Under the pieces are notes generated by a model, which did no database searches, was not told where the DNA came from, and saw only the letters and a list, made by a program, of their open reading frames with translations. Positions 51,441-56,177 of a DNA stretch of 64,000 nucleotides are shown here, one piece after another. This DNA comes from a virus, in the IMG/VR virus record IMGVR_UViG_3300037258_000161, positions 1 through 64,000 of that record; one strand, written 5' to 3'. Position numbers and translations under genes: made by a program. Positions within the stretch are counted from its first letter, which is position 1; the number at the start of each line of letters is the position of its first letter.

Positions 51441-52442
51441 TCAGACGGCGCTCGCGATGGCACCGAAGGGCCAGCGCTGCTGGGTCCCCCCCGCTCCGTC
51501 GATCGTCTCGGTCGGCTGCATGATGGTGACCGGGTTCGCGGTGGCATAGGCCATGCGGAAGGTCAGCTTCATGGCCACGGCGTTCTGCTGGAGGAGGTTG
51601 AGGACGACCTGCCCGGAGTCGTTGCTGATGACGCCCACATCGGTCATCTGGAACGAGATGTCCTGCCGCAGCCCGATCACAGCCTTGGTCCAGTCGCCGC
51701 ACAGCACCTGGGCCTTGGCGCCTTGCCACGAGCCGTTCTTGACCTCCGTCATCGTGTAGCCGTACAGAAGCGAGTTCCCCGTCGCCTTGCCGTTCTGCAT
51801 GTCGGGGGCATAGATCGGGACACCCTGTTCCGACCGCAGTCCCTTCAGCCGCCATCCCAGGCCGGGACGCGCGGCGAAGCCGTCCACCGTGTAGCCGGTC
51901 TGGGACATTGCGTCCCCGAGGGCCGCGATGGACTGCCCGAAGTCGTCCGCCGACTCGGTCCCGGCGGAATCCAGGTAACCATCCTGGACGACGTTCCCGG
52001 CCGCTACCGCACCGTCGTAGATCGCCTGTCCCCATGTGGTGGGCTTGGCGACATTCCAGAAAACAGCCGAGTCGATCAGTGCGCCGAGCGCCTCCACCAT
52101 CCGCGGCTGGACCTGCGCCCAGACATCCACATCGGCGTCATCGAGATACGCCTTCGGAACGGGGATGATCGTGGCGAGTTCCTCCACGACCAGCTGGACG
52201 CCCTTCCATGCCTGCGCCGCCGTCTGCACGAGGCCCGTGTCGCCTCCGACGAAGTAGGCGACCGGCAGCATGTCCAGCACGGGGATGCGCTGGGTCTTGG
52301 AGGACAGCGGCATGTGCGCCATCAGGCCCAGGGCCGCGCTCGAAGTCGGGAGTTCCTGGAAGATCTCGTTGCTCAGCGGCTCCGGCACGAGTGCGTCGGA
52401 ACCGCTGGAGCGCGAGATGAGGTCGTTATAGACACCCGTCAT
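51441..52442 (-). CDS. major capsid protein (HK97 fold)
   Basis: LVPEPLSNEI, EELATIIPVP, GDW, IGLRQDI, NLLQQN.VA...R. Confidence 0.92.
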   Translation of the reverse strand: MTGVYNDLISRSSGSDALVPEPLSNEIFQELPTSSAALGLMAHMPLSSKTQRIPVLDMLPVAYFVGGDTGLVQTAAQAWKGVQLVVEELATIIPVPKAYLDDADVDVWAQVQPRMVEALGALIDSAVFWNVAKPTTWGQAIYDGAVAAGNVVQDGYLDSAGTESADDFGQSIAALGDAMSQTGYTVDGFAARPGLGWRLKGLRSEQGVPIYAPDMQNGKATGNSLLYGYTMTEVKNGSWQGAKAQVLCGDWTKAVIGLRQDISFQMTDVGVISNDSGQVVLNLLQQNAVAMKLTFRMAYATANPVTIMQPTETIDGAGGTQQRWPFGAIASAV

Positions 52443-53194: not shown

Positions 53195-53220
53195 GCGGAT
53201 GCCTCCCATTCCGGGAAATG

Positions 53221-53251
53221 AAAAAGCCCTCCGCCATTCCGGCTGAGAGCT
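53221..53251 (-). terminator. hairpin + U-tract upstream of the scaffold gene
   Basis: AGCTCTC...GAGGGCT TTTT on minus; loop contains a GGAAU hairpin. Confidence 0.45.
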
Positions 53252-53273: not shown

Positions 53274-53645
53274 TTACTTGCGGGTGGGGCCGTCCGCCTT
53301 GAGGCTGCCGTCAGGTGCCCAGGTCGGGGGAATACGGGAAGAGAGACCCAGCTGTTTCGCGCGCATCATGACGAATCTCCGGACCGCCGCGCGTGCCTCG
53401 TCGGTAGCAGGCTTGATGCGGCCGATCGCCTTGATGGCGTTGTCCAGGTCAGCGGCGTTCTGAATGTTGAACCGGGGGCGCCCACCGGGCTTCGCTGGAG
53501 GCAGCGCCTTCCGCTGCTTCTGGAGCTTCCGCATGGTCGCGACGTCGGGTGTGGCCATGGGCCGCTTCCTTCCTGGCGAGAGGGGTTCGGGGACGAGGGG
53601 GTCACTGCCACTCGAGCGGGAGATGGCTGAGCCATAGGAAGCCAC
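53274..53645 (-). CDS. small head-associated protein (DUF6582-like) with MCP-like N-terminal peptide
   Basis: FNIQNAADLDNAIKAIGR...R.F...RAKQLG...IP.TW; GGGAGG SD before GTG 53645; alternative ATG at 53559. Confidence 0.75.
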   Translation of the reverse strand: MASYGSAISRSSGSDPLVPEPLSPGRKRPMATPDVATMRKLQKQRKALPPAKPGGRPRFNIQNAADLDNAIKAIGRIKPATDEARAAVRRFVMMRAKQLGLSSRIPPTWAPDGSLKADGPTRK

Positions 53646-53760
53646 GGGACCTCCCGTCGCTACGCTGGGAGCATGGCCAAGGTTCACCTGCAGGTCCGGG
53701 CCGCTGGACCGGGTCGCGCACGGAAGCTCGCCCGGTACATGACCCGGTGGGAGGGCGGTA

Positions 53761-54567
53761 CTACGCGACCCGAGGTGCCCCTACCGCGTCAGGGTGAGCC
53801 TTATCCCAGTACCGCCGCCATGCCCGCACTGCATCCGGTCCAGAGAAACCTCTGGTGACCCGCCTCCATTGCCGGTACAGGTCGTTGTCGCGGAGGGCCT
53901 TGGCGTCTTCCCTGCTAAAGGCTGCTGCGGCGCTGCAACGGCAACGCGAATGCGCCTTAAATCCTGCGGTCTGGGCGGTTTTGTACACTGCGCCACGTCC
54001 CGCTAGAAGGGCGCACCACGCGCATGGATCCGCCGCCGTAACGCGGTACCAGGCGACCGCTGCCGAGTCCTGCTGGACGGCCTGCAGGACCGCTGTGCGG
54101 GCCCCGTTCTGGATCAGCCGGGTAGCCGCCGACGCCATCACGTTCCCGGTCGCCTGCGCCGCCTGCGGGACGGGCTGCCCGGCCTTGATGCGCTTCAGCA
54201 GCGAGTACGGGCCGGTCGAGTCCAGCGTGGCCGTGACGAGTTCCGGGGGAGGCGGAGGGGGCACGCTCAGCAGCGGGGGAAGCGTGACCACCCCGGCTGC
54301 TGAGCGGGCCTGCTGATAGTACGCGTTCCCCGCCTGCCCCATCGCCTGTGACTGGGTCCCGATGACCGCGGTGATGGACGTGCGCACCTGGGGCCATGAC
54401 GAGATCACGTTCCGCAGGTCAAGCAGTCCCCACAGGCTGGTGATCTGCGAGAGAAGCCATGCCACCTGCCACGCCTGCTGCTGCCTGGAAGATTCGGCGA
54501 TCTGGGCCTGCGCCGCACGGGACGCGGTCGGCTGCGTGAGCGGCACCGGCCCGGCGTAGAGGCTCAC
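53761..54567 (-). CDS. MuF-like / capsid morphogenesis minor protein
   Basis: GARTAV, WYRV...PCAWCALLAGRG.VY, HSRCRC. Confidence 0.8.
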   Translation of the reverse strand: MSLYAGPVPLTQPTASRAAQAQIAESSRQQQAWQVAWLLSQITSLWGLLDLRNVISSWPQVRTSITAVIGTQSQAMGQAGNAYYQQARSAAGVVTLPPLLSVPPPPPPELVTATLDSTGPYSLLKRIKAGQPVPQAAQATGNVMASAATRLIQNGARTAVLQAVQQDSAAVAWYRVTAADPCAWCALLAGRGAVYKTAQTAGFKAHSRCRCSAAAAFSREDAKALRDNDLYRQWRRVTRGFSGPDAVRAWRRYWDKAHPDAVGAPRVA

Positions 54568-56177
54568 ACGCCGTGGGTCCGTTTCAATGCTGGCCCCTGG
54601 AAGGGATCGTCATCACCCGGAGGTGCCTGCTGGGCGCCCTGGGTCATCTGCGACTCGATCAGCTGATCCAGTTCCGCCAGCGCACCCTGCTTCGACGCTG
54701 CGGCCTTCCAGCGGGCCACATCATCGGCACTCGTCCCCGGCACCCGCTGCCACAGTTCCGTCGCGGGCACGCCGAGCATCTGGGTGAGTTTCCCGAGGGC
54801 GTCCACGGTGCCGGCGAACGCCCGGCCGCCCGTGTCGCGCCAGACGATCACCGCGGCGTCGTCATTCCACCCGGCCAGGTCGCCGGCTGCTTTCGACGCG
54901 AGCTGGAAGGTCTGCTTGTGGGGCTCGTTCAGGACACCCTGGGCCTCTTCCACTCTGCGGTCGAGCGCGTCGCGACTCGCAGTCAGGGCGTCTGCGGACA
55001 GATTTACCATCTGCCCCAAAAGATAATAAGGCGGCAACTGCGTGATGGTGCTCATGTGCACGATCGTGGCCTCGGCCGACTTGAGAAACCCCGTGAGATC
55101 CGTTTGCGCGAATTCACCGAATTTCGTGTCGGAATCCTCAGCCGTAAAGAGGCGGTCAACACCAGCCCGGAACGGCTCCTTCGGGTTCCCGTCCTCGTCA
55201 GACACAACCATCCCCGTGACCCACCGCTGCCTGAAAGCCCCGTACTGCTGGGCCATCAGGGCATTGAAGGTCGTGGTGTTCAGCTGGTCCTGCAGCGGGA
55301 TCAGCGGCTCCACGATCCCGGAGACGTCCATCTCGCCGTCAAGGTCAATCTGGTGCAGGTAGCGAACGACGGGGCACACCCCGAGCCCATGCTCGCTGAC
55401 CGCCTGTGTTCCGTTGAGCAGGACCGGGTCGTCGTCCTGCGGCCAGAACAGGCCCTCAGTGTCGGCCTTCCCGGTCAGCGTGTAGACCTTCTGGTCGTCA
55501 TACAGCCGCACGATCCGCCGCGCCCCGCCGGGCGCGTTGACGACGGTCTCCTCGACTGCGTAGGCAGGCCATTCGTCGTCAACGTCATCGGCGTACAGGG
55601 CGGTGAGGCGCCGCGGCGACACCGGCCGGATCACCGGATACGGCTCCCCGGGCAGCACCACTGTGTAGGCGAGCCCGTACTCGATCACCGAGCGGTGCAG
55701 GCCGTGCTGACGGCCTCCCATCCGGTTGGCCTGCCAGATCCGCCACGGCCCGTCATCTTCCTGCGGGGACTGGGCCTCTGCATGCGCGGCCTTCGCCTGG
55801 GCGAGAATCCCCGCCGCCCCAGCGGTATCACCGGCCTGCAGGGCGTCGTGAGCGCCCGCCAGGGCCACCGACACGTCATCGACCACATCCGCCGCCGCGC
55901 TCGGCCGGTAGCCGTCCACGTGCAGGTTCTGGCTAATCGTGGACACCACCAGCGGCAGGAAGTTCACCACCGACCGGTGCAGCAGCCAGCGGTACTCCTC
56001 CCGCGCGCCCCGCGGCACGTACACCGAGTCGTGGCGCCCGCGCATGTACTTGGAGATCCGCTTCAGGCGCCGCTGCTCGTGACCGCGGATGGCGAGGATC
56101 TTCTGCGCAAGCTGCGGGATGTCCTGGCTGTTTGCTGCGGAGGGAGCGTCGGCCTGCGCGAGCGTCATGACGGTCAC
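54564..56177 (-). CDS. portal protein (SPP1 gp6-like)
   Basis: VNFLPLVV, VDGYR, IWQAN, HGLGVCPVV, GAFRQRW.TG, NLSADAL. Confidence 0.92.
   Translation of the reverse strand: MTVMTLAQADAPSAANSQDIPQLAQKILAIRGHEQRRLKRISKYMRGRHDSVYVPRGAREEYRWLLHRSVVNFLPLVVSTISQNLHVDGYRPSAAADVVDDVSVALAGAHDALQAGDTAGAAGILAQAKAAHAEAQSPQEDDGPWRIWQANRMGGRQHGLHRSVIEYGLAYTVVLPGEPYPVIRPVSPRRLTALYADDVDDEWPAYAVEETVVNAPGGARRIVRLYDDQKVYTLTGKADTEGLFWPQDDDPVLLNGTQAVSEHGLGVCPVVRYLHQIDLDGEMDVSGIVEPLIPLQDQLNTTTFNALMAQQYGAFRQRWVTGMVVSDEDGNPKEPFRAGVDRLFTAEDSDTKFGEFAQTDLTGFLKSAEATIVHMSTITQLPPYYLLGQMVNLSADALTASRDALDRRVEEAQGVLNEPHKQTFQLASKAAGDLAGWNDDAAVIVWRDTGGRAFAGTVDALGKLTQMLGVPATELWQRVPGTSADDVARWKAAASKQGALAELDQLIESQMTQGAQQAPPGDDDPFQGPALKRTHGV

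Follow-up and report, generated by a model that had tools for sequence, protein, structure and literature searches.

In phage T4, small basic proteins enter the prohead by means of a short terminal peptide, the capsid targeting sequence. The N-arm of HK97-fold capsid proteins touches the scaffold at the prohead stage, and in the mature shell it touches neighbouring subunits. In 80alpha procapsids, the C-terminus of the scaffold contacts the capsid N-arm, and the CpmB protein of SaPI1 copies the C-terminal helix-and-hook of that scaffold and thereby competes for the capsid N-arm (PMC5644958). In actinophage major capsid proteins (MCPs), the N-arms reach over long distances to contact adjacent MCPs, and they are poorly predicted (10.1101/2022.09.09.507160).

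Here we describe an actinophage gene that opens with a copy of the N-arm tip of the phage's own MCP. The DNA analysed, called the window below, is a stretch of 64,000 nucleotides. Our search of the literature found no published account of a phage-encoded copy of its own capsid arm. If our reading is correct, a soluble, phage-made copy of the arm would represent a novel type of factor in the assembly of heads or in the conflict between phage and host, and it would offer a natural short peptide for directing proteins to capsids. Unrelated phages seem to share this design, among them T4, where easy genetics allows direct tests.

A small gene that opens with a copy of the capsid N-arm

The window is part of a 108,411-bp IMG/VR record of an uncultured actinophage that is 92% complete. 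The head module and the elements of the small gene are as follows.

58713-58258, minus strand: putative small terminase ORF, read from its size and position
58280-56598, minus strand: putative large terminase ORF, read from its size and position
54564..56177, minus strand: putative portal gene, named from its position between the terminase-large-like ORF and the VG15/MuF gene
53761..54567, minus strand: VG15/MuF-type minor head protein (PF25310, E 3.8e-28), with a CxxC...HxxCxC motif
53650..53655, minus strand: Shine-Dalgarno sequence GGGAGG for the GTG at 53645, read directly, with a 4-nt spacer
53274..53645, minus strand: small gene, long ORF (123 aa), made of an N-arm-like peptide, a basic linker and a helical DUF6582-like domain
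53577..53636, minus strand: N-arm mimic peptide (Y4 to S23), with the core Y..I.R..G.DPLVPEP
53559..53576, minus strand: basic linker PGRKRP, whose codons form the Shine-Dalgarno-like run AGGAAGGAAG (53574-53565) for the internal start
53274..53558, minus strand: short isoform or domain ORF (94 aa) from the ATG at 53558, the form predicted by the gene caller for the source genome
52496..53209, minus strand: scaffolding protein (DUF4355; PF14265 and phrog_1793)
51441..52442, minus strand: MCP, 333 aa, HK97 fold, without a delta domain (PF05065, E 2.4e-17; phrog_10)
52430-52371, minus strand: MCP N-arm tip, the distal end of the arm and the stretch copied in the small gene

Annotated portal genes occupy the same position in phages KimJongPhill and Muddy as the ORF at 54564..56177 does in the window. 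The VG15/MuF-type protein is homologous to Muddy gp7 (E 5e-14), which is annotated as 'capsid maturation protease', and its PHROGs matches are labelled 'head maturation protease'. Pfam and PHROGs searches recognised no canonical (ClpP-type) prohead protease in the head module of the window, only this VG15/MuF-type protein. The MCP belongs to the Bobi-like actinophage family (Pham 15199). Its nearest solved structure is that of Mycobacterium phage Muddy (8EDU; phmmer E 7.5e-74; 10.1101/2022.09.09.507160), and the two proteins are 40% identical by tblastn. A promoter and terminator scan around the small gene gave nothing informative. Short GC stems with GGAAT loops lie at 53208-53240 on the minus strand, within the 64 nt that separate the small gene from the scaffold gene.

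The long ORF begins V/M-A-S-Y-G-S-A-ISRSSGSDPLVPEPLS and the MCP begins MTGVYNDL-ISRSSGSDALVPEPLS. Within the block ISRSSGSD-P/A-LVPEPLS, which spans 53624-53577 in the small ORF and 52418-52371 (residues 9-24) in the MCP, 15 of 16 residues are identical, and the codons differ synonymously at 11 of these 15, with serines written AGT/TCC and TCG/AGC among them. A stretch of 21 codons counted from the shared Tyr has 16 identical residues, and 36 of its 63 nucleotides agree. This comparison confirms what a sequence-only reading of the window had claimed, namely that a small head-region gene opens with a copy of the MCP N-arm.

The likeness is well above what shuffled sequences produce: a Smith-Waterman alignment of the small protein with the MCP scores 77, and the maximum among 30 shuffles is 46. 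When the whole 108,411-bp record was searched in six frames, the small protein recovered only itself and the MCP N-terminus (E 2.7e-4). A scaffold mimic of the CpmB type is ruled out, because this sole second match lies at the MCP N-terminus and not in the scaffold. The MCP match to PF05065 starts at residue 18, which is profile position 4, and the peptide fits the start of the profile. The P-domain, A-domain and E-loop of the PF05065 fold are absent from the small protein, which has three helices after a disordered head; this composition of a 123-aa protein indicates that only the MCP arm was copied. With so few nucleotides in common, an RNA- or DNA-level explanation of the likeness is ruled out, and the same count, along with the class-specific P/A difference described below, rules out recent gene conversion.

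AF2 modelling with the family alignment predicts helices at residues 35-43, 64-74 and 82-99, with pLDDT 84-91 over residues 61-110. Residues ~60-115 are predicted to form a confident small helical domain, and residues 1-29 are unstructured (pLDDT<50). The small protein has no match in Pfam, PHROGs or PDB sequence searches; Foldseek of the predicted domain against the PDB returned nothing at E<=0.001, and its structural matches in BFVD are to uncharacterised phage proteins only. The name DUF6582-like comes from the sequence-only reading and finds no support from profile methods. Neither the small protein nor its 53 homologues qualify for DUF6582 (PF20223) by HMM (gathering score 27.3 bits), and a search of the complete genome with PF20223 gave no match at E<=10. 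The DUF6582 assignment is carried only by language-model neighbours in the ESM Atlas (27 of 30, scores 0.94-0.96), which come without an alignment and serve as a lead only.

The domain itself recurs in distant phages. There it can form the C-terminal end of ClpP-type prohead proteases (PF00574, E 1.6e-26) or the N-terminal end of proteins with DUF7211 repeats, it can follow a DnaJ-type zinc finger, and it can lie within larger head-region ORFs. These varied head-region contexts mark it as a head-module domain in its own right. A scan of genome contigs found only three distant relatives of the domain, with no mimic among them. This helical 'YPIxDxxDLDNAIxAVGR' domain is widespread in head modules (L038:4936-6255, L015:798-1838, L016, L021, L097 and L045) and is unmodelled by Pfam.

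Conservation, gene arrangements and the wider family

The relatives that carry the mimic are all metagenomic. About 20 distinct relatives keep the peptide in frame behind a conserved ATG or GTG start, so the relatives do not lack the matching peptide, an outcome that had been named in advance as speaking against the proposal. Nine residues are invariant among 19 copies (the initiator Met and Y, R, G, D, P, L, V and P), and the invariant D, L, V and P are each encoded by two to four codons across 21 distinct DNA versions. Invariant residues combined with synonymous turnover point to purifying selection on the peptide. This codon variety, together with the nucleotide count given above, bears out the earlier statement that the peptide rather than the DNA is conserved. 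The copy also carries a class-specific residue: in the clade of the window, the mimic reads D-P-L-V-P and the MCP reads D-A-L-V-P. Judged from these sequence patterns, the N-arm copy is translated in this family and is under purifying selection.

Three gene arrangements are found in the clade. In the fused arrangement, represented by 12 distinct loci including the window, the peptide is at the extreme N-terminus of the small protein, with an ATG or GTG two or three codons ahead of the Tyr, the same distance as in the MCP. Loci whose gene was called in its short form still have the peptide. In the split arrangement, it is encoded by a free mini-ORF of 44-60 aa whose stop codon adjoins the ATG of the domain ORF or overlaps it (L009, L010, L012-14 and L074). 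In the relocated arrangement (L072 and L077), a mini-ORF of 47-57 aa sits between the portal and MuF genes, where it abuts the end of the putative portal ORF, and lies ~1-1.7 kb upstream of the domain gene. An MCP tree intersperses the fused, split and portal/MuF-located arrangements within one clade (100/99 support). In the clade of the window, the mimic gene belongs to the head-assembly operon, and its translation is often coupled to that of head genes.

The sequence-only reading had cast the peptide as a tag that loads the DUF6582-like domain into the head. A selected mimic of the N-arm, fused to the domain in the window, agrees with part of that view, but in most relatives the peptide is not joined to that domain. 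The arrangements indicate that the peptide is a portable functional unit, and that the DUF6582-like domain is one partner among several. As a separate observation, two extra ORFs (241 and 108 aa, rich in Thr, Gly and Ala) lie between the domain and scaffold genes at L072:6281-7345. They also occur in L069 and L073, which belong to the same sub-lineage, and could encode decoration-like proteins.

The long form of the small protein has a counterpart in many homologues. Among the 53 database homologues, 29 were called with an N-terminal extension and 24 without one. The fused relatives (n=11) all open with M/V-A-x-Y from a conserved ATG or GTG, and a clear upstream GGAGG-like run is present in 6 of the 11 (7 of the 12 fused loci when the window is included). 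Conservation of the start codon, and in part of the run before it, speaks for the upstream GTG as a real start, as had been proposed.

The internal start is likewise conserved. Every fused relative has an ATG or GTG at residue 30, with a purine-rich GGA/AGG/AAG run 5-12 nt before it, and in split relatives the same purine-rich run closes the mini-ORF (..KKGK stop). Retention of both elements in all fused forms suggests that the basic linker is partly the imprint of a ribosome-binding site. The homologue in Streptomyces phage KimJongPhill, gp11, aligns to the small protein only from residue 30 on. The conserved internal start and run make it likely that there are two isoforms, one of them untagged and started at the internal ATG 53558. 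A second ATG with a Shine-Dalgarno-like run had been noted before at 53559; the codon and the run stand, being conserved in every fused form, but the codon occupies 53558-53556.

The mimic co-varies with the MCP of its own genome to a modest extent, a relationship that the earlier reading had suggested looking for. Across 18 genomes and ~20 aligned positions, mean identity to the own MCP is 12.33 and to other MCPs 11.42 (p 2e-5 in 50,000 permutations), an effect of about one residue in 20 that reflects few independent events. For 6 of the 18 mimics no other MCP is a better match, with the own MCP being the sole best for three of them; the window mimic matches three other MCPs as well as its own. 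The sequence 'RISRT' is common to mimic and MCP in one record only. Because the mimic and MCP paralogues separated before the phages diverged, this co-variation is not predicted by shared ancestry alone.

Searching 1.84 billion representative proteins with a profile of the peptide alone yielded 54 matches at E<=1e-3. Nearly all are proteins of 40-135 aa in which the motif is C-terminal and the N-terminal parts are unrelated and without Pfam domains. The motif in this wider family reads x-Y-D-x-M-I-x-R-x-x-D-G-S/P-D-P-L-V-P/Q-E-P and is followed by 2-10 residues, which indicates that a free N-terminus is not required. The neighbours of these mimics are replication and nucleotide-metabolism genes, such as those for DNA polymerase (L135) or thymidylate synthase and methyltransferase (L136). 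In G001 and G002, the mimic gene lies 17-18 kb from the capsid gene and on the opposite strand. Wherever an MCP is present in these records, it opens with the motif, as in M-P-T-Y-x-T-H-I-x-R-T-T-T-G-S-D-P-L-V-P-E-P-L. This was seen in four further independent records with an MCP on the contig, whose genomes each have exactly one mimic, 17-18 kb away where measured.

Copy number was assessed in eight records searched whole. Five of them (59% to 100% complete) hold the MCP copy and exactly one mimic, and each of these five has a separate short-form domain gene in its head module. The other three, members of the clade, hold the MCP copy only; as fragments that are 10-52% complete, they do not establish an absence.

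A second N-arm copy upstream of the MCP gene was not found in the fetched head modules of Muddy, JacoRen57, Bbif-1 and Eileen, nor in L083, L085 and L086, nor in KimJongPhill, which has the domain gene and an unrelated MCP. The lack of a second copy in the upstream stretch of cultured phages of the same family suggests that the mimic is not needed for this capsid type. Unannotated gaps of 260-290 nt separate the 'maturation protease' and scaffold genes in Muddy (L128:5697-5956) and JacoRen57 (L129:4536-4824). These gaps have the same position as the small gene of the window, and no N-arm copy was found in them.

Two side observations concern individual proteins from the profile search. In P0074, P0075, P0079, P0091, P0093 and P0102, the arm copy is preceded by an N-terminal 'C-E-F-G-C-x-P-M-D-H-G' and by 'DPWVSGSI'; the Cys/His motif of such wider-family mimics may be a small metal-binding handle. 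P0069 (188 aa), which has three repeats of 'MDGSDPLVASPLATWSIQ', also scored against the peptide profile and looks like an unrelated repeat protein.

Proposed function and rival explanations

The reading that we prefer, to which we would give slightly less than an even chance, is that the peptide acts in trans as a mimic of the N-arm and occupies the docking partner of the arm, either the scaffold or a neighbouring MCP. A copy that is unstructured, that appears active alone or at either end of a protein and that occurs once per well-covered genome is most simply read as a mimic that competes with the arm or assembles together with it. Residues 1 to ~23 of the long isoform would then be a paralogue of the distal MCP N-arm tip that stands alone and is kept by selection. 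The peptide would serve as a short, intrinsically unstructured docking motif that works at the N-arm docking site during head assembly. This site would be either the scaffolding protein (DUF4355) or a groove in which an adjacent MCP subunit takes up the arm. The AF2 disorder of residues 1-29 is what would be expected of an arm that folds only on its partner.

In the window, the motif would have become fused to a small basic DUF6582-like head-module protein. The product of GTG 53645 would be a tethered form, co-assembled with the shell or brought to it, and the product of ATG 53558 would be the free domain. Binding to the partner of the N-arm would presumably lead to incorporation, or to a modulation of assembly. 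The gene position in the wider group, among replication and nucleotide-metabolism genes and on the strand opposite the structural genes, fits a role in assembly less well than the position in the head module does.

That same position is what gives some weight to a different proposal, which we consider unlikely: that the mimic is a decoy for a host factor and titrates or blocks an immune or abortive-infection sensor, a protease or a chaperone that reads the MCP N-arm. The wider-group mimics lie in a non-structural arm beside DNA polymerase, thymidylate synthase and methyltransferase genes, their motif is kept while the flanking protein parts are highly variable, and a single mimic per well-covered genome that tracks its own MCP would also suit a decoy. 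The gene in the clade of the window, however, is within the head-assembly operon and often translationally coupled to head genes, and if the sensor is an activating one, a decoy bound to it should set it off. Moreover, we know of no defence system that senses the MCP N-arm. Rather less probable than a decoy, in our estimate, is a dedicated encapsidation tag that loads the DUF6582-like domain into the prohead in the manner of T4 capsid targeting. The 12 fused loci, with the peptide at the extreme N-terminus and at the distance from Met found in the MCP, look like such a tag; the cargo resembles internal proteins in being small and basic, and in distant phages the domain is carried by ClpP-type prohead proteases that are themselves encapsidated. 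Yet the split and relocated forms show the peptide working unattached to the domain, the wider group has the domain and mimic genes kilobases apart, and the conserved internal start suggests that much of the domain is made untagged.

Both proteins might instead share a recognition or processing signal at which one enzyme, for example the VG15/MuF-type protein, trims or modifies them, and this we regard as more improbable still than the tag. The PHROGs labels of the VG15 protein and its homology to Muddy gp7 would suit such an enzyme. T4 gp61.1, discussed below, copies a stretch of gp23 that spans what we take to be the E65/A66 cleavage point, and the scaffold and capsid proteins of 80alpha share a site for the host protease Prp, a comparable case. 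The motif, however, aligns with the part of the N-arm that is modelled as mature capsid (PF05065 profile position 4 onward), the head module has no canonical prohead protease, and a motif that is C-terminal in the wider family, 2-10 residues from the end, would be odd for an N-terminal processing site. Finally, the peptide could be left over from a partial duplication at the 5' end of the MCP gene and have no function, a reading to which we assign only a negligible probability. Origin by such a duplication is likely, since within the MCP family the motif goes back further, being present in Bridgette-type MCPs. Lack of function, though, is effectively refuted: the peptide stays in frame across >20 divergent loci and in 54 database clusters, and the conserved copies show synonymous turnover as well as a class-specific residue.

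Comparison with known systems

One of the closest parallels to the trans-acting mimic that we favour comes from T4 itself. Residues 2-38 of gp61.1, a protein of 54 aa annotated as hypothetical, align with residues 57-93 of the capsid protein gp23 (E 1.4e-5; L151:167-331, L153), and a comparison of gp61.1 with the whole T4 genome matches only itself and gp23. Like the mimic, gp61.1 is the product of a small ORF that copies the N-terminal region of its own MCP. Its gene is beside the primase gene and away from the capsid gene, a location that resembles that of the wider actinophage group. No sequence relationship was seen between gp61.1 and the actinophage peptide. The gp23 57-93 stretch presumably includes the E65/A66 maturation cleavage site, and so the T4 copy would span a protease site, whereas the MCP of the window has no delta domain and its module no canonical prohead protease. 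The match of gp61.1 to its own gp23 suggests that the capsid-arm-copy design recurs independently. What the actinophage case contributes is a lineage that lacks both a delta domain and a canonical prohead protease, along with three gene arrangements and a large family with a C-terminal motif.

The capsid targeting sequence of T4 resembles the fused form in the window, in which a terminal peptide is likewise joined to a small basic protein. The T4 sequence is not known to copy a capsid protein and is removed by the prohead protease. The actinophage peptide differs in that it copies the MCP arm, can sit at either terminus and also occurs free of cargo: the window and 11 fused relatives have it at the N-terminus, and most members of the wider family have it at the C-terminus or internally.

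SaPI1 CpmB is similar in being a small protein that exploits the interface between scaffold and N-arm by mimicking a short motif of one partner. There, a parasite copies the scaffold side, whereas here the phage itself copies the capsid side. The Bobi-like MCPs of Muddy (8EDU) and Bridgette (8ECI) have in common with the system described here the N-arm that is the source of the motif and that makes inter-subunit contacts, but the cultured Bobi-like phages examined differ from the window in having no second arm copy upstream of the MCP gene.

Taken with T4 gene 61.1, the actinophage copies raise the tentative and, in our judgement, still rather doubtful prospect that capsid N-arm copies form a general, convergent class of mini-proteins, which would act on the docking site of the arm and either control the joining of capsomers or blind a host factor.
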